Part shown: in pieces, positions 1,644 to 46,110 of the stretch
Layout: each line of letters opens with the position of its first letter
Numbering within the stretch: position 1 is the stretch's first letter
Source of the DNA: Armatimonadota bacterium
GTDB taxonomy: Bacteria > Sysuimicrobiota > Sysuimicrobiia > Sysuimicrobiales > Kaftiobacteriaceae
Assembly: GCA_037440005.1 (NCBI GenBank)
Contig: JBBIUY010000006.1
Coordinates: 44,326-108,325, forward strand
Length of the DNA stretch: 64,000 bases
Reading direction: 5' to 3'
The notes under the pieces: generated by a model
What the model saw: only the letters and a program-made list of their open reading frames with translations
Databases searched by the model: none
Told to the model about the DNA's origin: nothing
Made by a program: the position numbers and the translations under genes

Positions 1644-2984
1644 TCAATCGGCGTTGTGAATGGTGTCGATGAGTTTCTTTAAGGTGGCGGCGAGGTACGG
1701 GTCGCGGGCCAGGACGGCTTTGACGCGCTCGCAGGCGTGCATGACCGTGGTGTGGTCGCGGCCGCCGAACTCTTCCCCGATCCGCGGCAGCGACGCGTCG
1801 GTGAGCTCTCGCGCCAGGTACATGGCGATCTGGCGGGGGAAAGCGATTCCTTTGGTGCGCCGTTTGGCGCGCATCTCCTCGACGCGCAGACCGAAGTGGT
1901 CGGCCACCACCTTCTGAATGAGGGGAATCGTCACCACCCGGGGCGCGGTAGCGGGAAGCAGCTCTTTGAGGATTTCGGCGGCCAGCTCGACCGTCATGGG
2001 GGCGCGGGTCAGGGTGGCGTAGGCCACCACCCGGACCAGGGCGCCCTCCAGCTCCCGGATGTTGGACTGGATGCGCTGGGCGATGTACTCGGCCACATCG
2101 TCGGGTACGGTCATGCCGTCCAGCTCAGCTTTCTTACGCAGGATGGCGATGCGGGTCTCCAGGTCGGGTGGCTGGATGTCGGCGATCAGTCCCCACTCGA
2201 ACCGCGACCGCAGCCGATCCTCCAGGGTGGGGATCTCCTTGGGAGGGCGGTCGCTGGTGATGATAATCTGGCGGCTGGCCTCGTGGAGGGTGTTGAACGT
2301 GTGGAAGAACTCTTCCTGGGTGCGCTCCTTGCCCGCCAGGAACTGGATGTCGTCGATCAGAAGGACGTCCACGTTGCGGTACTTGGTGCGGAACTCCAGG
2401 GTCCGGTCGTCGCGGATGGCGTTGATGAGTTCGTTGGTGAACTTCTCGCTGCTGATGTACGCCACGCGGGTGAGCTGGTGCTTGTGGATCACGTGGTGGC
2501 CGATGGCCTGCAGCAGGTGCGTCTTGCCCAGCCCCACGCCGCCGTAGATGAACAGGGGGTTGTAGGCCCGGGCGGGAGCTTCGGCCACGGCCATGGCGGC
2601 GGCGTGGGCGAACCGGTTTCCCGATCCGATGACGAAGGTGTCGAAGGTGTACTTCGGCGACAGCGGGAGGCCTTCGGGCGGCCGGGGGAGGGGCGAGGAC
2701 GCGGCCGGAGGAGGGGTGGCAGGCCCCTCGGCCACGGTGATCTGGACGGACACGGGGCGGGCCAGCACCTCCTGCAGGGCGGTGTGGATGAGGCTGGAAA
2801 AGCGCGTCTCCACCCACTCCTTGGCCAGCCGGGTCGGAACGGAAAAGACGAAGGTGTTGTCGGTCAGCGCCACGGGGACCATGGCTTTGACGAAAGACTC
2901 GTAGCTGGGTTTGCTGAGGCGGCCTTCGATGCGCCGCAAAGCCGCCTGCCAGACGCCAGCTGCGGACGTGGTGTTGACGGCCAT
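1644..2984 (-). CDS. dnaA: Chromosomal replication initiator DnaA
   Basis: 446 aa with AAA+ motifs [10 protein letters not shown] and IDDIQF and a C-terminal DnaA-box-binding domain. Confidence 0.97.
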
Positions 2985-3020
2985 CGGTGCGCCCTCCTGG
3001 GTGTGGATGCCGCGGGCGGC

Positions 3021-3959: not shown

Positions 3960-4215
3960 ACCGCGGCTGTGGACACGACGTACTGGGAAGCACCCCGACT
4001 TTCTCGGTCCGGTCGGCGGTGTCCTGCCGAACATGGGTGTGGGGCGCGCCTCCGGAAGTGCGCCGGGCGCGCTCGGGCGCGGGTATCCACAGGAGACGCC
4101 GCGGTTGTGGACAAGACGCGGGAGAAGGGGCGCATGAGCCCCCGGGCCCAGGGGAAGGGGGCGGGTGCGGGGACCGGAGAGGGAGGGCGTCTGGGAAAAT
4201 TGTGGACAAGACCCC
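3960..4215. promoter_or_regulatory. DnaA-box cluster upstream of rpmH (second oriC segment)
   Basis: DnaA-box-like 9-mers at 3968..3976 (tgtggacac), 4083..4091 (gtatccaca), 4106..4114 (tgtggacaa) and 4201..4209 (tgtggacaa). Each is 7-8/9 to TTATCCACA on one strand. Confidence 0.65.
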
Positions 4216-17230: not shown

Positions 17231-17285
17231 CGTACCTGTGTTCGTCACTTTGGGTCTTGAAAGTCGTACATATGTTCGCTATAAT
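17231..17285 (+). promoter_or_regulatory. lexA promoter: two tandem Cheo-type SOS boxes and a sigma-A -35/-10 pair
   Basis: Boxes cgtacctgtgttcg (17231..17244) and cgtacatatgttcg (17265..17278). The -35 ttgaaa is at 17257..17262 and the -10 tataat at 17280..17285, spaced 17 bp. Each box is one mismatch from CGAACRNRYGTTCG. Confidence 0.7.
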
Positions 17286-17307: not shown

Positions 17308-17937
17308 ATGGCCGCCCCTCTGACCGACCGGCAGCGGCAGGTTCTGGAGTACATCGCGTCCTCCATCCGCCAGACCGGCATCGTTCCCTCCGTGCGGGAG
17401 ATCGGCCAGGCCCTGGGTATGCGTTCGCCCTCCACGGTGCACCAGCACCTGACGGCCCTGGAGCGCAAAGGGTACATCCGGCGCCACGGCGACCGCATGC
17501 GGGTGCTGGAGGTGCTGGACAGGCGCCTGCTGCCGTCGGGGGAAGATGTCGCCCACCTGCCGCTGGTGGGCCGGGTGTCGGCCGGTCTGCCGGTGCTGGC
17601 CCAGGAGAACGTGGAGGAGATGATCCCCGTCCCCCGCCGGATGGTCGGCTGGCAGGACGACAACTGCTTTCTGCTGACGGTGCGGGGAGACAGCATGGCC
17701 GGCGCCGGGATCTTCGACGGGGACATGGTCATCGTCCGCTCGCAACCCACGGCGGCGGTGGGAGACGTGGTCGTCGCCCTGATCGGAGAGGAGGCCACCG
17801 TCAAGCGCCTGGCCGCCGAGGGCGGCCGGATGTACCTGAAGCCGGAGAACCCCGCCTACCCGCCGATCCGGGACGAGTTCGAGATCATCGGCAAGGTGGT
17901 CGGCCTGCTGCGCCGGTACGCCGGAGGCACCGGATGA
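17308..17937 (+). CDS. lexA: LexA repressor (SOS regulator, S24 peptidase)
   Basis: N-terminal wHTH QRQVLEYIASSIRQTGIVPSVREIGQALGMRS. Ser/Lys catalytic region VRGDSMAGAGIFDGDMV...ATVKRL. Confidence 0.92.
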   Translation: MAAPLTDRQRQVLEYIASSIRQTGIVPSVREIGQALGMRSPSTVHQHLTALERKGYIRRHGDRMRVLEVLDRRLLPSGEDVAHLPLVGRVSAGLPVLAQENVEEMIPVPRRMVGWQDDNCFLLTVRGDSMAGAGIFDGDMVIVRSQPTAAVGDVVVALIGEEATVKRLAAEGGRMYLKPENPAYPPIRDEFEIIGKVVGLLRRYAGGTG

Positions 17938-23977: not shown

Positions 23978-24417
23978 GCCTGATCCGGTGGGACCCCTTC
24001 GACGACCTGGCGTCGCTGCGGGAGTCCATGGACAAGCTGTTCGAGGAGTTCTTCAGCCGCCGGCCCCGGGGGACGGCGGTGACGGCGTGGCAGCCGGCGG
24101 TGGAGGTCTACGAGACCGACACCGAGGTGGTGGTGCGGGCCGAGCTGCCCGGGGTGGACCCCAAGAACGTGGACATCACCGTCACCGAGGACACCCTGAC
24201 CATCAAGGGCGAAGCGCGGGCCGAGCAGGAGGAGAAGGGGCGCAACTACTACCGGCGGGAGCTGCGCTACGGCGCCTTCCTGCGGACCCTGGCCCTGCCC
24301 GAGGAGGTGCAGGGGGACAAGGCCCGGGCTTCGTACCGGAACGGCATCCTGGAGGTCCGGGTCCCCAAGAGCGAGCGGTCGCGGCCCCGCACCGTGAAGG
24401 TGGAAGTGGCCGACTAG
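23974..24417 (+). CDS. Hsp20/alpha-crystallin small heat-shock protein
   Basis: Begins [12 protein letters not shown], with an alpha-crystallin core and the GILEVRVPK motif. The ATG overlaps the hspR stop. Confidence 0.9.
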
Positions 24418-24451
24418 CCGGGGGCGGCGCGGACAGGGAGGATCGGCAGCC

Positions 24452-26359
24452 ATGGGCAAGGTGGTGGGCATTGACCTGGGCACGACCAACTCGGTGATCG
24501 CCTGCGTGGTGGGAGGCGAGCCGCAGGTGATCCCCAACGCCGAGGGCAGCCGGCTGACCCCGTCGGTGGTGGCGTTCACCAAGACCGGCGAGCGCCTGGT
24601 GGGCCAGATGGCCAAGCGCCAGGCCATCCTCAACCCCGAGAACACCGTGTACTCCATCAAGCGCTTCATGGGCCGGCGCTACTCGGAGGTGGAGACCGAG
24701 CGCAAGATGGTCCCCTACAAGGTGGAGGAGGGGCCCAACGGCATGGCGGTGGTCCGGCTGCCGGCGGCCGGGCGGACCTTCACCCCCGAGGAGATCTCCG
24801 CCATGATCCTCCAGAAGCTCAAGGCGGACGCCGAGGCCTACCTGGGGGACACGATCACCGAAGCGGTCATCACGGTGCCGGCATACTTCAACGACGCCCA
24901 GCGTACCGCCACCAAGCATGCCGGCGAGATCGCGGGCCTGAAGGTTCTGCGCATCATCAACGAGCCCACCGCCTCCTGCCTGGCCTACGGCCTGGACAAG
25001 AAGGGCGCCGAGACGGTGCTGGTCTTCGACCTGGGCGGGGGGACCTTCGACGTCTCCATCCTGGAGATCGGGGAGGGCGTCTTTGAGGTCAAGGCCACCT
25101 CGGGAGACACCCACCTGGGCGGCGACGACTGGGACGAGCGCATCGTCCACTGGCTGGCCGACCAGTTCAAGCGCGAGCACGGCATCGACCTGCGGCAGGA
25201 TCGCCAGGCGCTGCAGCGGCTGCGGGAGGCCGCCGAGCGGGCCAAGATCGAGCTGTCCACGGTGACCCAGACCACCATCAACCTGCCCTTCATCACCGCC
25301 GACGCCACCGGGCCCAAGCACCTGGACTACGTGCTGACCCGGGCCAAGTTCGAGGAGCTGACCGCCGACCTGGTGGAGCGGTGCATCGGCCCGTTCAAGC
25401 AGGCCCTGGCCGACGCCAAGATGACCGAGAAGGACCTGGACGAGGTCATCCTGGTGGGCGGGTCCACCCGCATGCCCATGATCCAGGAGCTGGTGCGCCG
25501 CCTGACGGGCAAGGAGCCCAACAAGGAGGTGCACCCCGACGAGGTGGTGGCCGTGGGCGCGGCCATCCAGGCCGGCGTGCTGGCGGGCACGGTGCGGGAG
25601 GTGGTGCTGCTGGACGTCACGCCCCTGTCCCTGGGCGTGGAGACCCTGGGCGGCGTGATGACGGTCCTGATCCCCCGCAACACCACCATCCCCACCCGCA
25701 AGAGCGAGATCTTCACCACCGCCGCCGACGACCAGACCCAGGTGGAGATCCACGTGCTGCAGGGCGAGCGGCCCATGGCCCGGGACAACCGCACCCTGGG
25801 CCGCTTCATCCTGGACGGGATCCCGCCGGCGCGCCGGGGCGTGCCCAAGATCGAGGTGACCTTCGACATCGACGCCAACGGCATCCTCAGCGTCACCGCC
25901 AAGGACACCGCCACCGGGCGGGAGCAGTCCATCAAGATCACCGGCACCTCCACCCTCTCCAAGGAGGAAGTGGAGCGGATGGTCAAGGAGGCGGAGCGGT
26001 ACGCCGAGGAGGACCGCCGCAAGCGCGAGGTGGCCGAGACCCGCAACCGGGGCGACTCGCTGGTGTACCAGACCGAGCGCATGCTCCGGGAGGTGGGCGA
26101 CAAGATCTCCGCCGCCGAGCGCCAGCAGGTGGAGGCCAAACTGCGCGACCTCAAGGACGCCCTGGCCACCGACGACGTGGCCCGCATCCGCCGCGCCATC
26201 GACGACCTGCAGCAGGCCAGCTTCAAGCTCACCGAGGCCATGTACGCCCGGGCGGCGGCCTCGGGCGGGTCGGCGCGGCCGGGGCCCGACGGGCCCGCCG
26301 GCGGGACGGGCGGCGAGGACGTGATCGACGCCGACTACAAGAAGGCCGACGACCGCTAG
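24452..26359 (+). CDS. dnaK: Chaperone DnaK (Hsp70)
   Basis: 635 aa starting GIDLGTTNS, with DLGGGTFD and the other Hsp70 signatures. Confidence 0.97.
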
Positions 26360-26374
26360 GAGCGCCTGCGGGGG

Positions 26375-26953
26375 ATGCCCATGGAGGAACGGCTGGATCA
26401 GGTCCCGCCCCCCGCCGGGAGCGGGGCGGAGGCGGAGACGGCGCCCGCCCCGCCCGCCTCCGCAGAGACCCCGACGCCCGAGGAGGTCATCGCCGAGCTT
26501 CGGGCGGAGGTCGAGCGCCTGCGGGCGGAGGCGGAGAGGAACTGGCAGCAGTTCCTGCACGCCGCCGCCGACCTGGAAAACTACAAGAGGCAGGCCGCCC
26601 GCCAGCGGGAAGACGCCGTCCAGCGGGCCCGCCACTCGCTGCTGGCGGTGATCCTGGCCGTGGTGGACACCCTGGAGCGGGCGCTGGAGCACGCCGGCGG
26701 CGACGGCGCGGCGATCCTGGAGGGGATCCGGATGACCCACCGGCAGGTCCTGGACCTGCTGGCGAACATGGGGGTCCGGCCGATGGAGGCCCGGGGGCAG
26801 CCCTTTGACCCCCGCTACCACGAGGCGGTGGACGTGGTCTCCCCCGACGAGCACGGCGTCGCTCCCGGGACGGTGGTGGAGGAAGTGCAGCGGGGCTACC
26901 TGCTGAACGGAGAGGTGCTGCGGCCGGCGCGGGTGCGGGTGGCGAAGGTCTAG
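26375..26953 (+). CDS. grpE: Nucleotide exchange factor GrpE
   Basis: Coiled-coil followed by a GrpE beta domain (LRPARVRVAK). Confidence 0.9.
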   Translation: MPMEERLDQVPPPAGSGAEAETAPAPPASAETPTPEEVIAELRAEVERLRAEAERNWQQFLHAAADLENYKRQAARQREDAVQRARHSLLAVILAVVDTLERALEHAGGDGAAILEGIRMTHRQVLDLLANMGVRPMEARGQPFDPRYHEAVDVVSPDEHGVAPGTVVEEVQRGYLLNGEVLRPARVRVAKV

Positions 26954-26975
26954 CGGGCCGGGGCGGAGGGGCGGG

Positions 26976-27932
26976 ATGGAGTTCAAGGACTACTATCGGA
27001 TCCTGGGCGTGGACCGGGACGCCGACCAGAAGGCCATCGCGGCCGCCTTCCGCCGCCTGGCCCGCCAGTACCATCCCGACGTCAACAGGACCCGGGAGGC
27101 CGAGGAGAAGTTCAAGGAGATCAACGAGGCCTACCAGGTGCTGGGCGATCCCCAGCGCCGCGCCCGGTACGACCAGATGTACGACGCCTACCGCCGCGGA
27201 GGGGTGGACTGGCAGCAGGTCTTCGGCGCGCCCGGCGCGCCGGGCGGGTGGACGGTGACCGTCGGAGGCGACGTCGACCTGGAGGACCTGCTGGCGGGGA
27301 TGGGCTTTTCGGACTTCTTCAGGCGCTTTTTTGGCGCCGACTTTGCGGAGGCCCGGCGTGCGGGCCGGGCCGGCCGCAGGCGGGTAGGCGTGGAGGAGGC
27401 CGCCGGCGCGCCGCCGGCGCCCGCCGCCACGGTCACGGTCACCCTGGAGGAGGCGTTTACCGGCACCCGCAAGTCCGTGGTGGTGCCCCTCAACGGCGCC
27501 TCCCGGCGGTTTGACGTCTCCATCCCTCCGGGAGTGCGGGACGGCCAGCGGATCCGGCTGCCGGGGGCGCTGGAGGGGCAGGACGTCTACCTGGTGGTGC
27601 AGGTGCAGCCCCACCCGGTGTTCGCCCGTCAGGAGGACCACGTGGTGGTGGAAGTCCCGGTGACGCCGTCGGAGGCGGTCCTGGGCGCCCGGATCGAGGT
27701 CCCGACCCTGGAGGGCAAGGTGGAGATGGTCCTGCCCCCCGGCACCCAGAACGGGCAGACGTTCCGCCTGCGCGGGCTGGGCATGCCCCGGCGCGAGGGC
27801 GGGCGCGGCGACCAGCTGGTGCGGGTGAAGGTGGTCGTCCCCACGGACCCCACGCCCCGAGAAAGGCAGCTGTACGAGGAACTGGCCCGGCTGCGCCGGG
27901 ACAACCCGCGGGCGTCGTGGGGATGCCGCTGA
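26976..27932 (+). CDS. dnaJ: DnaJ-family co-chaperone of CbpA/Thermus type: J domain plus C-terminal domains, no Cys-rich zinc finger
   Basis: J domain YYRILGVDRDADQKAIAAAFRRLARQYHPDVN with HPD. No CxxCxGxG repeats are present anywhere. C-terminal beta domains are present. Confidence 0.8.
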   Translation: MEFKDYYRILGVDRDADQKAIAAAFRRLARQYHPDVNRTREAEEKFKEINEAYQVLGDPQRRARYDQMYDAYRRGGVDWQQVFGAPGAPGGWTVTVGGDVDLEDLLAGMGFSDFFRRFFGADFAEARRAGRAGRRRVGVEEAAGAPPAPAATVTVTLEEAFTGTRKSVVVPLNGASRRFDVSIPPGVRDGQRIRLPGALEGQDVYLVVQVQPHPVFARQEDHVVVEVPVTPSEAVLGARIEVPTLEGKVEMVLPPGTQNGQTFRLRGLGMPRREGGRGDQLVRVKVVVPTDPTPRERQLYEELARLRRDNPRASWGCR

Positions 27933-27941
27933 CGGCGAGGT

Positions 27942-30575
<2,634 letters not shown>

Positions 30576-39119: not shown

Positions 39120-40217
39120 TTGGTGAGCCCTATGGCGCGCGCCCTTCCCGTCCGCGGACTGACCGAGGGAGCCATCCTGGCCGCCGTGGCGGCGGTGCTG
39201 GCCCTGGCCGCCCACTACCTGCCGGTGGCCGGGGCGGCGGCGTTCTTCCTGTGCCCGCTCCCGCTGGTCGTCCTGGTGGTCCGCCACGGCCTCCGGGTGG
39301 CCGTGCTGGCCGCGGCGGTGGCCGCCGCCATCGGGACCCTGGTGGGAGGGCTGCTCATCGGCCTCAGCATTCTGGTGGCGTTCGCCCCCCTGGGCCTGGC
39401 CATGGGCTGGGCCGTGCGGCGGGGGTGGGCGGGCGGGGCGGTGTGGCTGCTGACCTGGGGCGTCGCCGTGGCCTCGGCGGTGGCCAGCGTCGGCATCGCC
39501 ATGGTGGGGGTGGGCGTGGACCCCCGCCAGGTGCTGCTGGAGACGATCCAGCAGACCCGCAGCAGCCAGGAAGCGGCGATGGGCCTGTACGCCCGGCTGG
39601 GGCTGGATACCCCGCAGGTGCGCCAGGCGGCGGAGCAGATGCAGCGGATGATGGACCTGCTGCCCCGGCTGCTGCCGCTGCTGTTCGTGCTGTCGGGCGC
39701 CCTGAGCGCCTACCTGAACCTGGTGGTCGGCCGGGCGGTGCTGCGGCGGATCCGGATCGACGTCCCGGCGCTGCCGCCGGCGTCGGCCTGGAGGCTGCCC
39801 TCCTGGTTCCTGTGGACGCTGCCGGCGGGGCTGGGCCTGCAGCTGGGAGCCTGGGCGGCGACGGTGCCGGTGCAGGTCCCCGGAGCGGTCCTGCGGCGGC
39901 TGCCCCCCGACGACGTGCGGGCGGTGCTGGCCCAGCCGGTGACCCGCTACCCCCTGCTGGAGACGCTGGGGTTGAACGTGATCATCCTCGCCCAGCTGGT
40001 GTTCTCGGCGCTGGGGCTGATCACGGCGTGGGTGCTGATGGACCGGTACCGGCTGCCGCGCTGGTACCGGGTGGTGCTGCTGGTCCTGGCCGCCGCCACG
40101 CCGGTGCTGAGCCTGGCGGTCTTAGTCCTGGGGCTGGCCGATGTGGCCTTCGACCTGCGGCGCCGATGGCGGTCGGAGACGCCAGCCTCGGGGGCGGAGG
40201 TGCGGGGAGCGCGATGA
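39120..40217 (+). CDS. yybS: DUF2232 (YybS-like) polytopic membrane protein
   Basis: About 10 TM helices. Its position between rpsR and rplI matches B. subtilis yybS. Confidence 0.7.
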   Translation: MVSPMARALPVRGLTEGAILAAVAAVLALAAHYLPVAGAAAFFLCPLPLVVLVVRHGLRVAVLAAAVAAAIGTLVGGLLIGLSILVAFAPLGLAMGWAVRRGWAGGAVWLLTWGVAVASAVASVGIAMVGVGVDPRQVLLETIQQTRSSQEAAMGLYARLGLDTPQVRQAAEQMQRMMDLLPRLLPLLFVLSGALSAYLNLVVGRAVLRRIRIDVPALPPASAWRLPSWFLWTLPAGLGLQLGAWAATVPVQVPGAVLRRLPPDDVRAVLAQPVTRYPLLETLGLNVIILAQLVFSALGLITAWVLMDRYRLPRWYRVVLLVLAAATPVLSLAVLVLGLADVAFDLRRRWRSETPASGAEVRGAR

Positions 40218-40660
40218 AGGTGGTCCTGCTGGCCGACGTGCGGGGGCTGGGTCGCGCGGGAGAGGTGGTCGAGGTCAAAGACGGGTACGCCCGCAACTAC
40301 CTGCTGCCCCGGGGCCTGGCCGCCGAGGCGACCGCGGGCCGGGTGCGGGAGATGCAGGACCACCAGCAGGCCCGCGCCCGGCGTCAGGAGCGGGAGCGGG
40401 AGGAGGCCGCGCGCCTGGCGGCGGCCCTGGAGGGGGTGGCGGTGGACCTGCGCGCCCGGGCCGGCGAGGGAGGCCGCCTGTTCGGGTCCGTCACCGCGGC
40501 CGATGTCGCCGAGGCGCTGGCCGCCCGGGGGTTTGCGGTGTCCAAGCGGCAGGTGGAGCTGGACGAGCCCATCAAGGCCGTCGGCACCTACACGGTGCCG
40601 GTGCGGATCGCCCCGGGCGTGGTGGCCCGGGTGCAGGTGAACGTGGTGGCCGCCCGCTGA
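40214..40660 (+). CDS. rplI: 50S ribosomal protein L9
   Basis: Begins MKVVLLADVRGLGRAGEVVEVKDGYARNYLLPRGLA. Confidence 0.92.
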   Translation: MKVVLLADVRGLGRAGEVVEVKDGYARNYLLPRGLAAEATAGRVREMQDHQQARARRQEREREEAARLAAALEGVAVDLRARAGEGGRLFGSVTAADVAEALAARGFAVSKRQVELDEPIKAVGTYTVPVRIAPGVVARVQVNVVAAR

Positions 40661-40698
40661 TCCGCCCCGGCGGTCGCCGCGGCGGGAGACGTGTCGCC

Positions 40699-42651
40699 AT
40701 GGGACAGCAACGGCGCATCCTGCGTCCGGTCAACCCCGTCGGCACCCTGGACAGTCGCGAGTCGCTCAAGCGCAAGGCGGCGGCGCTGCTGGGGGTGCTG
40801 GGCAGCCTGCTGGGCGCCGAGCTGGCCCGGCGCGCCGACAGGGTGGGCGCGCGGTCGCTGATGCGCAGCCGCCACCTGGGCCGGCAGGTCCTGGCCCTGC
40901 AGCGGCTCGTCTACGAGGACCCGACGCTGGCGGCGGTCCCCTCCGACGCCGAGATCCCCGCCATCCTGGAAGACCTGCAGGAGCGCATCGCGGACCTGAT
41001 GGCCCGCAAGGCCGTGGAGGACGAGCTGGAGCGGCGCGTGGCCGACCGGATGCGGGAGCGCCAGGAGGAGTACCTGCGGGAGCTGAAGATGCAGCTGCTC
41101 CGGGAGACCGGGGGAGGCGAGACCGAGGCCACCCGCCGCCGCCTGGAGGAGCTGGAGAGGTTGGAGCAGGTGCGCCTCGCCCGCACGGCCCTGGAGGCCC
41201 TGCGGCCCCGCCGGCTGTCCCAGGTGGTGGGCCAGGACCGGGCGGTGCGGTCGCTGCTGGCCAAGTTGGCCGTGCCGGTGCCCCAGCACGTGATCCTGTA
41301 CGGGCCGCCCGGCGTAGGCAAGACCACCGTCGCCCGCCTGGTCCTGGAGGAGGCCAAGAAGCTGCCGGGCAGCCCGTTCCGCAGGGACGCCCCCTTCATC
41401 GAGGTGGACGGCTCCACCCTGCGGTGGGACGCTCGGGAGGCCACCAACCCCCTGCTGGGGTCGGTGCACGACCCCATCTACCAGGGCAGCCGGAGGGAGT
41501 TCGCCGACCTGGGCATCCCCGAGCCCAAGCTGGGCCTGGTCACCCGCGCCCACGGCGGGGTGCTGTTCGTGGACGAGATCGGCGAGATGGACCCGGTCCT
41601 CCAGGCCAAGCTGCTGAAGGTCCTGGAAGACCGCCGGGTGTACTTCGAGTCGTCCTACTACGACCCCAGCAACCCGCACACCCCTGCGTACATCCGCAAG
41701 CTGTTCGAGGAGGGGGCGCCGGCCGACTTCATCCTGATCGGGGCCACCACCAAAGAGCCGGAGGAGATCAGCCCGACGCTGCGGTCGCGGTGCGCCGAGG
41801 TGTTCTTCGACCCCCTGTCCCAGGAGGACATCCAGAAGATCGTGCGGCAGGCGGCCCGGCGGCTGGGCGTGGAGATCAGCGCCGACGTCCCGCGCATCAT
41901 CAGCGAGTACACGGTGGAAGGGCGGCGCGCCGTGAACATCCTGGCCGACGCCTACGGGGTGGCTCTGTACCGCCGGCGGGGCCGGCTGGGCAACGGGGCG
42001 CGGAGGCCGCGGGTGCGGATCACCGTGCGGGACCTGCAGGAGGTCATCCGCGCCGGCCGGCTGGCCGCCAGCACCCTGGTGAAGGCGTCGGACACCCCCG
42101 AGGTGGGGCGGGTGTTCGCCCTGGGCGTGTCCCAGTACGTGGGGTCGGTGATCGAGATCGAGGCCACGGTGTTTCCGGTGGCCAGGCGCCAGAGGGGCAC
42201 CATCCGCTTCAACGAGACCGCCGGCTCCATGGCCAAGGACTCGGTGTTCAACGCCGTGTCGGTGATCCGGAGGCTCACCGGGATCGACGTGAGCGGCTAC
42301 GACATCCACGTCAACGTCATCGGCGGGGGACTCATCGACGGGCCCAGCGCCGGGCTGGCCGTGGCCCTGGCCATGCTGTCGGCCCTGCAGAAAAAGCCCC
42401 TGCGCCAGGACGTGGCCGTCACCGGGGAGATCTCCATCCAGGGCAAGATCCGGCAGGTGGGCGGGATTCCCGAGAAGATCTACGGGGCGCGCCAGGCGGG
42501 GATGCGCAAGGTCATCATCCCCGCCGAAAACCGGGCCGACGTGCCCGCAGACGTCAAGGGCCTGGAGGTGGTGTGCGTGTTCACCATCGACGAGGTGCTG
42601 CCCCACGTGTGGGCCCGGCCCTCCCGCCGGAAGGCGGGGCGGCACCCGTAG
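40699..42651 (+). CDS. Lon-like ATP-dependent protease (AAA+ module plus S16 Ser-Lys protease domain; LonB/LonC-like, no Lon N-terminal domain)
   Basis: Walker A GPPGVGKTT, Walker B LFVDEIGEMD, and the Lon protease motif DGPSAGLAVALAM. Confidence 0.85.
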   Translation: MGQQRRILRPVNPVGTLDSRESLKRKAAALLGVLGSLLGAELARRADRVGARSLMRSRHLGRQVLALQRLVYEDPTLAAVPSDAEIPAILEDLQERIADLMARKAVEDELERRVADRMRERQEEYLRELKMQLLRETGGGETEATRRRLEELERLEQVRLARTALEALRPRRLSQVVGQDRAVRSLLAKLAVPVPQHVILYGPPGVGKTTVARLVLEEAKKLPGSPFRRDAPFIEVDGSTLRWDAREATNPLLGSVHDPIYQGSRREFADLGIPEPKLGLVTRAHGGVLFVDEIGEMDPVLQAKLLKVLEDRRVYFESSYYDPSNPHTPAYIRKLFEEGAPADFILIGATTKEPEEISPTLRSRCAEVFFDPLSQEDIQKIVRQAARRLGVEISADVPRIISEYTVEGRRAVNILADAYGVALYRRRGRLGNGARRPRVRITVRDLQEVIRAGRLAASTLVKASDTPEVGRVFALGVSQYVGSVIEIEATVFPVARRQRGTIRFNETAGSMAKDSVFNAVSVIRRLTGIDVSGYDIHVNVIGGGLIDGPSAGLAVALAMLSALQKKPLRQDVAVTGEISIQGKIRQVGGIPEKIYGARQAGMRKVIIPAENRADVPADVKGLEVVCVFTIDEVLPHVWARPSRRKAGRHP

Positions 42652-42722
42652 GCGCCGCGCCCGGCGGCCCCCTCCGGGAGGGTGTCCGCGGAGACCCCCG
42701 GGTTTCACCCCGTTTCTACAGG

Positions 42723-42731
42723 TTATCCACA
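42723..42731 (+). promoter_or_regulatory. Perfect DnaA box TTATCCACA upstream of dnaB
   Basis: An exact match to the consensus 9-mer, about 165 bp upstream of the dnaB ATG. Confidence 0.55.
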
Positions 42732-42835
42732 GGTAAATTGCCCCTCTCCCACCTCAGGACGGCTGATGCCCACAAGGAAACCCACAGCCTCCGGCCCTAA
42801 TCTGGTAGGCCGTACCGGTCCCCCGATCGGGGGAC

Positions 42836-42866
42836 TTGACGTGTTCGAACGTACGTTCGCTATAAT
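42836..42866 (+). promoter_or_regulatory. dnaB promoter with an embedded perfect Cheo-type LexA (SOS) box
   Basis: The -35-like ttgacg is at 42836..42841, the palindrome cgaacgtacgttcg at 42846..42859, and the -10 tataat at 42861..42866. The box ends 1 nt before the -10, as in the lexA promoter. Confidence 0.65.
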
Positions 42867-42895
42867 GGGCGCGCACGCCTGCCAGGAGGAGGAGC

Positions 42896-45235
42896 ATGTC
42901 GATACCGGCCGTCGCCATTGAGCGGGTGCCTCCCCAGAACCTGGAGGCCGAGCAGGGTGTGCTCGGGTCGATGCTGCTGGACCGGGACGCCATCGCCCGG
43001 GTGGTGGAGCTGATCCGGCCGGAAGACTTCTACCGGGACGCCCACCGCCGCATCTACGAAACCATCGTGGACCTGTTCGAGCGCGGCGAGCCGGTGGACC
43101 TCATCACCGTCACCGACCGTCTGCGAGACCGGGGGCAGCTGGACGACGTGGGGGGAGCCAGCTACGTCACGTCCCTGCTGCACGCCATCCCCACGGCGGC
43201 CAACGTGGAGTACTACGCCCGCATCGTGCTGCAGAAGTCCATGCTCCGCCAGCTGATCGCCGCCGGCACCCAGATCGCCCAGATGGGCTACGAGGGCGAC
43301 ACCGACGTGGAGATGCTGGTGGACCGGGCCGAGAAGCTGGTGTTCTCCATCGCCAACCGGCGGCTGGCCCAGGAGTTCGTGCCCATCCGGGAGATCCTCA
43401 AGGAGAGCTTCGAGCGCATCGACCGCCGCTACCAGGACAAGGGGACCGTCACCGGGGTGCCCACGGGGTTCGCGGACCTGGACATGCTCACCAGCGGCCT
43501 GCAGCCGGCGGACCTGGTCATCGTGGCCGCCCGCCCGGCCATGGGCAAGTGCCTGAAGTACGACAGCGAGGTGGTGGACCCGCGCACCGGCGAGGTCCGG
43601 ACCATCCAGGAGGTGGTCGGCCGGGGCGAGGCGGTCCTGTGGACCCTGGACGAGGGCGGCCGCCTGCGGACGGGGTCCCCCAGCCACTTCGTCAACGACG
43701 GCATCCGCCCCGTCTACCGGGTGCGGACCGCCTCGGGGCGGGAGGTGGAGACCACCGCCTCCCACCCGTTCCTCACGCCCGGGGGGTGGCGGCCGCTGGT
43801 GGACCTGCAGGTGGGGGAGCCCATCGCCGTGCCCGCCCGGCTGCCCGCCTTCGGCGCGCTGGACCTGCCGGCCTACGAGGTCAAGCTCCTGGCGTACCTG
43901 TGCGCCCGGGCCATGGCGACGTCCCCGGTCCTGGCCGCCGACTACGCCGACGCGGTGGCGGTCGGCGAGGCGATCCGGGCGGCCACCCGCCCCCAGCCCG
44001 CGCCCCCGGCCCGGGACCCCGTGGAACCCTTCCCGGTGCAGGGGGCGGCGGTGCCGGAGGTGGTGGGGGCGCTGCTGGCGCGGCACCCGGTGCTGGCAGA
44101 GCCGGCGGAGTCCGCCGCCCTGCCGGGCGTGGTGTTTACCCTGACCCGTCCCAAGCTGGCCCTGTTCCTGTCCCGGCTGCTGGCGTGCACCGCCGCGGCC
44201 GAGGGCGAGCCGGAGGCGCCGGTGGTGCGCTGCCGCCTGCCCAGCGCCCGCATGGCGCGCCAGTGCCAGCACCTGCTGCTGCGGTTCGGGGTGGCGGCGT
44301 CGGTGGACGGCCCGCACCTGCAGGTCCGGGGAGACCATGCCTGGAGGCTGTTCGCCCGGGTGGGCCTGCTGGGGTGGGAGCGGTGGCGGCAGCGGGCGCG
44401 GCACGAGGTCGAGAGCCTGCTGCCGGAGTCCGACGTGCTGTGGGATGTGGTGGTGGCCATCGAAGACAGCGGCGAGGCCCAGGTCTACGACCTGACGGTC
44501 CCTCCCACCCACAACTTCGTGGCCAACGACATCTGCGTGCACAACACCACCTTCAGCCTCAACATCGCCCAGCACGCGGCCATCCACCACCACATTCCCG
44601 TGGCCATCTTCAGTCTGGAGACCAGCAAGGAGCAGCTAGTGCAACGCTTTCTGTGCGCCGAAGCGGAGGTGGACGGCAGCAAGCTGCGCACGGGCTTTCT
44701 GGCCGACAGCGACTGGCCCAAGCTGGCCCGGGCCATGGGCCGGCTGTCGGAGGCGCCCATCTTCATCGACGACTCGGCCACCATCTCCGTCATCGAGATG
44801 CGGGCCAAGGCCCGCAAGATGAAGGCCGAGCACGGGCTGGGCCTGATGGTGGTGGACTACCTGCAGATGATCCAGTCCTACAAGCGCACCGAGAACCGCA
44901 CCCAGGAGATCAGCGAGATCGCCCGGTCCCTGAAGTCGCTGGCGAAAGAGCTGAACATTCCCCTCATCGCCATCTCCCAGCTGTCCCGGGCGGTGGAGGT
45001 CACCGGCACCCGGCGGCCGATGCTGTCCCACCTGCGGGAGAGCGGCGAGCTGGAGCAGGTGGCGGACCTGGTACTCTTCATCTACCGGGAGGATTACTAC
45101 AATCCGGATACGGACAAGAAAAACATCGCCGAGATCATCATCGCCAAGCACCGCAACGGACCCATCGGCACCGTGGAACTGTACTTCCACAAGGAGTTCA
45201 GCCGGTTTGCCAACCTGGACCGCCGCCGCGTCTGA
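42896..45235 (+). CDS. dnaB: Replicative DNA helicase DnaB interrupted by an in-frame intein
   Basis: The DnaB N-domain is followed by AARPAMGK (Walker A), which is interrupted; extein sequence resumes TTFSLNIAQH and continues to LRESGELEQVADLV and beyond. The total of 779 aa compares with about 445 aa expected. Confidence 0.93.
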   Translation: MSIPAVAIERVPPQNLEAEQGVLGSMLLDRDAIARVVELIRPEDFYRDAHRRIYETIVDLFERGEPVDLITVTDRLRDRGQLDDVGGASYVTSLLHAIPTAANVEYYARIVLQKSMLRQLIAAGTQIAQMGYEGDTDVEMLVDRAEKLVFSIANRRLAQEFVPIREILKESFERIDRRYQDKGTVTGVPTGFADLDMLTSGLQPADLVIVAARPAMGKCLKYDSEVVDPRTGEVRTIQEVVGRGEAVLWTLDEGGRLRTGSPSHFVNDGIRPVYRVRTASGREVETTASHPFLTPGGWRPLVDLQVGEPIAVPARLPAFGALDLPAYEVKLLAYLCARAMATSPVLAADYADAVAVGEAIRAATRPQPAPPARDPVEPFPVQGAAVPEVVGALLARHPVLAEPAESAALPGVVFTLTRPKLALFLSRLLACTAAAEGEPEAPVVRCRLPSARMARQCQHLLLRFGVAASVDGPHLQVRGDHAWRLFARVGLLGWERWRQRARHEVESLLPESDVLWDVVVAIEDSGEAQVYDLTVPPTHNFVANDICVHNTTFSLNIAQHAAIHHHIPVAIFSLETSKEQLVQRFLCAEAEVDGSKLRTGFLADSDWPKLARAMGRLSEAPIFIDDSATISVIEMRAKARKMKAEHGLGLMVVDYLQMIQSYKRTENRTQEISEIARSLKSLAKELNIPLIAISQLSRAVEVTGTRRPMLSHLRESGELEQVADLVLFIYREDYYNPDTDKKNIAEIIIAKHRNGPIGTVELYFHKEFSRFANLDRRRV
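43550..44545 (+). mobile_element. DnaB intein (332 aa) inserted in the P-loop, with Hint domains and a central, apparently degenerate endonuclease-like region
   Basis: Starts with Cys (CLKYDSEVVDPRTGEVRTI, block A), has block B TTASHPFLT, and ends VYDLTVPPTHNFVANDICVHN followed by Thr at +1. Central LAGLIDADG-like motifs lack the acidic residues (LLAYLCARA, LALFLSRLLA). Confidence 0.85.
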
Positions 45236-45237
45236 CC

Positions 45238-46110
45238 GTGGACGCCGCCTTCGCCCTGCTGTCGGCCGCCCTGTTCGCCGGCAACGCCCTGTGCGTACGG
45301 CTGGGCCTGCGGGGGTCCACCGCCACCACCGCCACCCTGCTGTCGGTGGCGACCAACCTCACCGCCCTGTGGGCGCTGGCGGCGGCGCGGGGGTCTCTGG
45401 CGCGGATCGCCCACCCGGCGGCGGGGGTGTTCCTGCTGGCGGGCATGTTCGCGCCCGCGCTGGCGCGGCTCACCTACTATGAGAGCCTCACCCTGATCGG
45501 GGTCGCCCGGGCGGCCACCATCAGCAACACCACGCCGCTGTTCTCGGCCCTGCTGGCGGTCCCCGTCCTGGGAGAGCGCCTGAACTGGCGGATTGCCGCC
45601 GGCACCGTCCTGGTGGTGGCCGGGGTGGTGCTGGCGGTGCGCCAGGCGAGCGAGCCGGGCGCGGGGCGGGCAGCGGGCTCCTCGGGGGTGTCGGGGGCGC
45701 TGCTGGCCCTCAACACCGCCGTGATGGCCAGCATCTCGTTCATGCTGCGCAAGATCGGGCTGCGGATGCTGCCGGACCCCGTGCTGGGAGCGGCCCTGAC
45801 GGTCACCGGCTCGCTGCTGGTGCTGCTGCCCTATGCCGCCTCCCGCTGGAGGCGGGAGCCCCTGCGGGCGGACCGGCCCAGCCTGGGGTGGCTGGTGGCG
45901 GGCGGGCTGCTGACCACCGGGGGGTTTTTGGCCTACTACCTGGCCCTCCACCTGGGGGACGTGGTGCGGATCACCCCTCTGTCCAACACCACGCCCCTGT
46001 TCGCCGTGGCCCTGCTGTACGCGTTCCGGCAGGTGGAGACGGTGGCGCCCGCCACTGCCCTGGGGGCGGTGCTGGCCGTGGCGGGGGTGCTGCTGGTGGC
46101 GACCGGCTGA
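45238..46110 (+). CDS. EamA/DMT-family transporter
   Basis: Ten TM helices in two EamA repeats. The GTG start lies just after the dnaB stop. Confidence 0.75.
   Translation: MDAAFALLSAALFAGNALCVRLGLRGSTATTATLLSVATNLTALWALAAARGSLARIAHPAAGVFLLAGMFAPALARLTYYESLTLIGVARAATISNTTPLFSALLAVPVLGERLNWRIAAGTVLVVAGVVLAVRQASEPGAGRAAGSSGVSGALLALNTAVMASISFMLRKIGLRMLPDPVLGAALTVTGSLLVLLPYAASRWRREPLRADRPSLGWLVAGGLLTTGGFLAYYLALHLGDVVRITPLSNTTPLFAVALLYAFRQVETVAPATALGAVLAVAGVLLVATG

Follow-up and report, generated by a model that had tools for sequence, protein, structure and literature searches.

A predicted and conserved LexA operator in the dnaB (replicative helicase) promoter of an uncultured clade related to Candidatus Sysuimicrobiota

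Can the supply of the replicative DNA helicase be part of a bacterial SOS response? SOS regulons are usually described as sets of repair, mutagenesis, and cell-division genes, and the replicative helicase is treated as a constitutive housekeeping function; some bacteria appear to couple helicase supply directly to DNA damage. The question is raised by a stretch of 64,000 nucleotides (nt) of contig JBBIUY010000006.1 (assembly GCA_037440005.1; here, the window), in which a palindrome, CGAACGTACGTTCG, is embedded in the promoter of the helicase gene dnaB. We consider it likely, from the sequence comparisons presented here, that this palindrome is a functional operator for the host's own LexA, of the CGAAC-N4-GTTCG (Cheo or Gram-positive) type, and helicase supply is very probably raised by the SOS response in this uncultured clade. 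The element as such is a standard Cheo-type SOS box. The unusual part is its target gene, which is uncommon and partly precedented. The coordinates of all the features discussed are collected in Table 1.

First, we considered the box and its position within the promoter. The interval 42836-42866 reads TTGACG-tgtt-CGAACGTACGTTCG-c-TATAAT, in which CGAACGTACGTTCG is a perfect 14-nt palindrome located 37 nt upstream of dnaB. A first, sequence-only reading of this DNA had described an exact and fully palindromic Gram-positive SOS box lying between TTGACG and TATAAT and ending 1 nt before the -10 hexamer, and both the box and its placement were borne out. It is the sole exact CGAAC-N4-GTTCG in the 64-kb window, for which 0.05 occurrences were expected, and 5 of 100 dinucleotide shuffles contained at least one. 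When up to two mismatches were allowed, 36 matches were observed versus 26.8 expected, that is, the window was not enriched in relaxed sites, and the only good sites with one mismatch and an A/T-rich center were the two boxes upstream of lexA. The 12-mer GTTCGCTATAAT, which comprises the right arm, the c, and the -10 hexamer, has just two occurrences in the window, one at the lexA promoter and the other at the dnaB promoter. The geometry had been described as the same in both promoters, which holds for the downstream side, where c and TATAAT follow either operator, but not for the upstream side: the -35 and -10 hexamers are 19 nt apart at dnaB versus 17 nt at lexA, and the distance from the box to the -35 hexamer is 4 and 2 nt, respectively. 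The same reading had placed lexA downstream, while it is actually 25.6 kb upstream of dnaB in window coordinates.

The regulator that would bind such a site is encoded in the window, and it is a canonical LexA. The protein scored 213.5 bits against the TIGR00498 equivalog model (cut-off, 110.95) and aligned over its full length to the LexA chains in the PDB, with VGRVSAG (containing the Ala-Gly bond), GDSM (serine), and TVKRL (lysine) all kept. Its recognition-helix segment, STVHxHL, is presumably the same as that of Bacillus subtilis LexA. The Cheo box CGAAC-N4-GTTCG is the Gram-positive LexA consensus, with operators of B. subtilis LexA (DinR) at recA, lexA, uvrBA, and dinB/dinC. The lexA gene of the window is preceded by a proximal and a distal box, the latter being an addition to the sequence-only reading, which had named one lexA operator only. 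A metagenome scan with the window LexA returned 80 loci, and essentially all relatives with upstream sequence available (>50; 58 to 84% LexA identity) had two boxes at the lexA promoter. The proximal box of a typical relative reads TTGAT(a/g)-t(t)-CGTACATATGTTCG-c(c)-TATA and is thus arranged like that of the window.

In order to compare the dnaB upstream regions of related genomes, we searched one genome per species of the GTDB collection using the N-terminal extein of DnaB as the query, which returned 80 loci. The ten closest loci (L001 to L010), all of them metagenome-assembled genomes with 70 to 87% DnaB identity, were taken as the clade set, and 68 loci with usable upstream sequence and identities of ≤60% were taken as the outgroup. 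The clade includes Candidatus Fervidifonticultor secundus and Candidatus Geohabitans tengchongensis, both of which the NCBI taxonomy assigns to the family Humicultoraceae of Candidatus Sysuimicrobiota, the former CSP1-3 (PMC11604079). A box of the same type was found in all ten clade loci, 43 to 54 nt before the dnaB start, with the sequences CGAACGTTTGTTCG, CGTACATTTGTTCG (three loci), CGAACATGTGTTCG, CGTACATATGTTCG (two loci), CAAACATTTGTTCG, and CGAACATATGTTCT (two loci). The left arm is CGTAC, CGAAC, or CAAAC, with a preference of the clade for CGTAC in one arm. Most of these boxes are preceded by a TTGAC-like hexamer and all of them are abutted or overlapped by a TATAAT-like hexamer, with spacers of 16 to 18 nt. 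Among the 68 outgroup loci, none had a box with one mismatch or less at the dnaB promoter, and the single poor match was found at -185 in a Paenibacillus. When the clade sequences were anchored on the box, the information content was 1.67 bits per column within it, 0.98 in the next 8 nt (corresponding to the -10 hexamer), and ca. 0.35 elsewhere. By this comparison, the box is a clean phylogenetic footprint amid otherwise unalignable DNA, and the site is clearly under purifying selection.

These data bear directly on the least complicated alternative, namely, that the palindrome is there by chance or forms an RNA or DNA hairpin acting as a terminator or attenuator of transcripts reading through from lonC, the protease gene upstream of dnaB. 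We regard this as extremely improbable. A perfect 14-nt palindrome could form such a stem, exact matches did appear in a few of the shuffled sequences, and the palindrome would be transcribed if lonC reads through. Read-through from lonC into dnaB is possible, since there is no convincing terminator after lonC: none was detected in a terminator scan of 42400-43000, and the fold z-score of the lonC 3' region was -0.35. However, the presence of the box in 10 of 10 relatives versus 0 of 68 outgroup loci excludes a chance origin. As for the hairpin, the left arm is changed (CGTAC or CAAAC) in 6 of the 10 relatives while the right arm GTTCG is kept, and two more relatives combine a GTTCT right arm with CGAAC on the left; in all of these a stem pair is broken and no compensatory change is seen. 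Neither a T-run after the palindrome, a terminator in the scanned interval, nor a match to any Rfam family in a scan of the whole window was found, and the site, being upstream of the -10 hexamer, is outside the dnaB transcript started at that promoter. An identity as an intrinsic terminator or RNA hairpin was thus rejected. Arm variation that breaks the pairing without compensation is what makes the box fit a protein-DNA site.

Whether that protein is LexA was evaluated with a 20-column weight matrix built from 58 distinct lexA-upstream sites of the relatives, from which dnaB sites were excluded. Only three matches in the window scored above 12: the proximal lexA operator (29.6), the dnaB box (21.9), and the distal lexA operator (14.6), so that against the background of the window the dnaB box ranked second. 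Its score falls inside the range of the lexA operators (16.5 to 34), as do those of the clade dnaB boxes (19.4 to 32.7), and in several relatives the dnaB box is identical to the lexA operator, giving the top scores of 30.9 to 32.7. Beyond the window, the matrix gave one further site of at least 17 outside the lexA and dnaB promoters in ca. 400 kb of clade loci and four in 557 kb of outgroup loci, none of the latter at a dnaB promoter. The additional clade site belongs to L005 (Ca. Geohabitans tengchongensis), in which a box, ATTCGAACAAAAGTTCGTAT, with a score of 30.4 is located at 184-203, just after rpsR and upstream of a cluster formed by the DUF2232 gene, a small open reading frame, lonC, and dnaB. 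In that genome, LexA may control the whole DUF2232-lonC-dnaB cluster through two operators. Within the window, we found no box at ssb, dnaA, or dnaN, and no repair gene (recA, uvr, ruv, or translesion polymerase) among the ca. 45 genes scanned with Pfam.

A different regulator, such as a LexA paralogue, another helix-turn-helix (HTH) protein, or a member of the ArsR family, might bind the palindrome instead of, or besides, LexA. The sequence-only reading had raised this idea, and ArsR-type repressors have been speculated to occupy SOS-box-like motifs in mycobacteria (PMC8151990). We consider it quite unlikely, given that lexA itself is preceded by this motif in an identical register, both in the window and in >50 relatives, which is the classical signature of LexA autoregulation. 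Moreover, a scan of ca. 45 window genes revealed no second LexA-like gene, and the motif is the established Gram-positive LexA consensus. The LexA control of dnaB that had been suggested is therefore supported on several sides, by a canonical LexA, by a lexA-promoter motif in the same register relative to the -10 hexamer, by the matrix, and by the contrast between clade and outgroup.

Several observations weigh against this assignment or its strength. The sites used to train the matrix had been preselected at one mismatch or less to CGAAC-N4-GTTCG, which makes the scores partly circular, and the promoters of recA, uvrA/B, and the other canonical SOS genes are outside the window, so that lexA autoregulation is the single basis on which the motif is assigned to LexA. 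The GTAC center of the window box departs from the ATAT or ATTT preferred in the clade, and its score is the third lowest of the 11 dnaB boxes. A standard promoter scan of 42400-43000 with spacers of 16 to 18 nt called no promoter, because the dnaB spacer is 19 nt long. Finally, an essential gene can hardly be repressed tightly without harm, and the quantitative effect may for this reason be small.

With these reservations, LexA binding, repression, induction by damage, and the physiological purpose, all of which we infer from the sequence, can be joined in a simple scheme. The operator fills most of the -35/-10 spacer, and a LexA dimer bound to it would occlude the promoter and so keep RNA polymerase out, in the same way as at lexA. 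Upon DNA damage, RecA filaments on single-stranded DNA would trigger LexA self-cleavage at the Ala-Gly bond. LexA would then leave the operator, and dnaB, probably along with the permease gene that follows it, would be transcribed more strongly. The extra helicase would then be available for reloading at repaired forks. Since dnaB is essential, its basal expression must persist, which could be achieved either by incomplete repression (through the less favored GTAC center and the 19-nt spacer) or by read-through from lonC.

Another outcome is conceivable even if LexA does bind. It could fine-tune or cap dnaB expression in nongrowing cells, or an excess of helicase could act as a brake on initiation and reloading through a helicase-loader imbalance. 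The essentiality of dnaB, which renders full repression implausible, the subconsensus center of the window box, and the possible lonC read-through would all be compatible with such an outcome, and overexpressed DnaB is described as inhibiting initiation and fork reloading in Escherichia coli (PMC4828956). Against it, the dnaB boxes that are identical to the lexA operator in several relatives, and that reach the top of the score range, argue for real repression. We therefore hold an outcome of this kind to be unlikely and retain damage-induced derepression as the preferred reading.

The association of the box with dnaB is independent of the elements surrounding it. Among the 11 clade genomes, lonC is located upstream of dnaB only in the window and in L001, L002, L005, and L008, and the box is kept regardless; a tie between the two was rejected, as 6 of the 10 relatives have no lonC there. 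Nor does the box depend on the intein that interrupts DnaB. The intein itself, reported by the sequence-only reading, was confirmed by the Pfam model Intein_splicing together with intein N- and C-terminal models, but the link that had been hinted at between it and the box did not stand, since L009, which encodes an intein-free DnaB of 450 aa (with an uninterrupted GKT), still carries the box, and the intein is configured differently again in L002, L006, L007, and L010.

Across the clade, DnaB proteins differ widely in the intein sequence carried at this one P-loop site. None is present in L009, and the inteins of the window, L001, L003, and L004 are ca. 330 aa long. The DnaB of L010 has 948 aa and those of L002, L006, and L007 have 1213 to 1220 aa, corresponding to a larger intein or to two inteins. 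Clade dnaB products other than that of L009 range from 777 to 1220 aa; the L005 dnaB, with 410 aa, is apparently truncated or split. In the window intein (ca. 330 aa, P-loop site), no homing-endonuclease domain was detected by Pfam. A second peculiarity of some relatives is another exact CGAAC-N4-GTTCG located 14 to 18 nt before the dnaB start in L002 (ca. 3983), L003 (ca. 3966), and L004 (ca. 3966) and absent from the window. Its center coincides with the Shine-Dalgarno sequence (GGAG, AGGA, or GGGA). It is probably not a LexA site, with matrix scores of only 7 to 12, and could serve as a weak second operator or form a hairpin that masks the ribosome-binding site.

How does this compare with known systems? 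To our knowledge, the replicative helicase is not part of the SOS regulons of E. coli or B. subtilis. The locus resembles the LexA system of B. subtilis in the palindrome, in an operator that lies over core promoter elements, in the autoregulation of lexA (here with two boxes), and in a LexA made up of HTH and S24 domains. It differs in its target, the replicative helicase, in the preference for a CGTAC arm, and in its host, an uncultured organism with 72% GC that is related to Candidatus Sysuimicrobiota (CSP1-3). Along similar lines, LexA ties DNA-processing motors and replication accessory proteins to damage in E. coli (PMC4080785). Examples are ssb, uvrD, dinG, and polB; the operator there is CTGT-N8-ACAG, and the replicative helicase is not known to be a target.

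The closest case is found in Mycobacterium tuberculosis. The remark of the sequence-only reading that replicative helicases are not among the usual SOS genes is right for E. coli and B. subtilis but overlooks this precedent (PMC3381160). At the M. tuberculosis dnaB promoter, a LexA motif was found by FIMO, and a height-based peak of chromatin immunoprecipitation sequencing was sub-threshold and not confirmed by BayesPeak, indicating a possible weak site; the gene was damage induced in a partly RecA-dependent manner (PMC3381160). Later RNA sequencing again tied dnaB induction to a putative SOS box, and also to PafBC (PMC8151990). Both systems share the target gene (Rv0058 in M. tuberculosis), a related motif (TCGAAC-N4-GTTCGA), and an intein-bearing DnaB (PMC3381160, PMC8151990, PMC11377839). 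In contrast, the site described here is at consensus level, inside the core promoter, conserved in a clade, and in a different phylum, and its intein is in the P-loop and dispensable for the association with the box, as L009 indicates. A literature search for LexA control of dnaB retrieved only the reports on M. tuberculosis, and the paper describing Sysuimicrobiota mentions neither SOS nor LexA (PMC11604079).

Upstream of the box, the dnaB promoters of the clade contain a second putative regulatory element, an array of DnaA-box-like sequences. In the 11 clade promoters (ca. 230 nt upstream of the box), we counted 29 DnaA-box-like 9-mers with two mismatches or less on the plus strand and none on the minus strand, while shuffled sequences gave 2.0 ± 1.5 sites (maximum, 7). 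Relatives have a tandem xCCACA(A)GG pair equivalent to that of the window (Table 1). No such array was found at the 68 outgroup dnaB promoters. The pattern suggests a DnaA input combined with that of LexA at the dnaB promoter. As in the known cases from B. subtilis and E. coli, in which DnaA acts as a transcription factor of replication-stress genes and DnaA boxes cluster outside oriC, a 9-mer array with one perfect copy, TTATCCACA, precedes the promoter of a replication gene; unlike them, the array is strictly one-directional, clade specific, and paired with a LexA operator, and its members are predicted DnaA sites, most of them with one to three mismatches. A role as a second origin was rejected. 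No regular DnaA-trio pattern was apparent by eye (no dedicated scan was made), and the real origin adjoins dnaA/dnaN. The window opens at this origin region, with dnaN (353-1489) and dnaA (1644-3020) on the minus strand followed by yidC, gidB, parA, and parB on the plus strand. The dnaA/dnaN region is flanked by near-consensus DnaA boxes (1459-1541 and 4083-4209). The dnaB gene is ca. 38.5 kb from the origin region and co-oriented with it, and most of the window shows a positive GC skew.

If the box is used as predicted, the clade would strengthen the so far ambiguous case of M. tuberculosis dnaB and would offer a first starting point for describing the LexA regulon in CSP1-3/Sysuimicrobiota, an uncultured phylum. 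The combination of a LexA box, DnaA-box repeats, and a P-loop intein makes the locus a candidate for multilayer control of replication restart. A broader proposal, which we put forward tentatively and consider possible rather than probable, is that dnaB is a core SOS gene across Candidatus Sysuimicrobiota/CSP1-3 (Humicultoraceae and neighbors), with DnaA-array input, LexA input, and, in most members, post-translational gating by the P-loop intein, so that helicase dosage, and not repair enzymes alone, would be a primary control point of the damage and replication-restart response.

Table 1 Features of the window that are discussed in the text, in window coordinates
Feature	Position	Strand	Basis
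Predicted LexA operator (Cheo or Gram-positive-type SOS box) CGAACGTACGTTCG	42846..42859	.	Unique match; matrix score 21.9; 10/10 clade conservation
-35-like hexamer TTGACG, dnaB promoter	42836..42841	+	Read from sequence; TTGAC at the equivalent place in most relatives
-10 hexamer TATAAT, dnaB promoter, 1 nt after the operator	42861..42866	+	All relatives have a similar hexamer adjoining or overlapping the box
dnaB Shine-Dalgarno region, aggaggaggag	42884..42894	+	Read from sequence
dnaB, encoding the replicative DNA helicase (779 aa), whose P-loop contains a class-1-like intein (GK/CLKYD...VHN/TTF; slashes mark the intein boundaries)	42896..45235	+	Pfam DnaB, DnaB_C, Intein_splicing; intein N- and C-terminal models
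lexA, 209 aa, HTH and S24 autopeptidase domains, Ala-Gly cleavage site, Ser/Lys dyad	17308..17937	+	Pfam LexA_DNA_bind, Peptidase_S24
Proximal lexA operator CGTACATATGTTCG, between TTGAAA (17257-17262) and TATAAT (17280-17285)	17265..17278	.	Top matrix score, 29.6; same operator in most relatives
Distal lexA operator CGTACCTGTGTTCG	17231..17244	.	Matrix score 14.6; distal box in nearly all relatives
Perfect DnaA box TTATCCACA upstream of the dnaB promoter	42723..42731	+	Only perfect match in the 64-kb window
Two tandem CCCACA repeats, ATGCCCACA and AAACCCACA, 12 nt apart, weakly DnaA-box-like (3 mismatches)	42766..42786	+	Read from sequence
lonC-type protease gene upstream of dnaB	40141..42651	+	TIGR02903 'spore_lon_C', 927 bits
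EamA/DMT-type permease gene, GTG start 3 nt past the dnaB stop	45238..46110	+	Translation; weak DMT-transporter matches; also behind dnaB in L001

Regarding the genomic neighborhood, the window has a GC content of 72.2%, and its DnaB scored 580 bits against the TIGR00665 equivalog model (cut-off, 385). The gene order is rpsF, ssb, rpsR, a DUF2232 gene, the LonC-type protease gene, a 244-nt spacer, dnaB, and the EamA/DMT-type permease gene. The permease gene is probably cotranscribed with dnaB and would therefore be coregulated with it; it is an odd partner for a helicase gene. The lonC gene occupies the place held by rplI before the helicase gene in Bacillus, and its family, TIGR02903, is named after endospore formers, here being found in a Sysuimicrobiota-like genome. 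Between lexA and dnaB, the plus strand carries a heat-shock cluster, dnaK-grpE-dnaJ-clpB (24398-30575).

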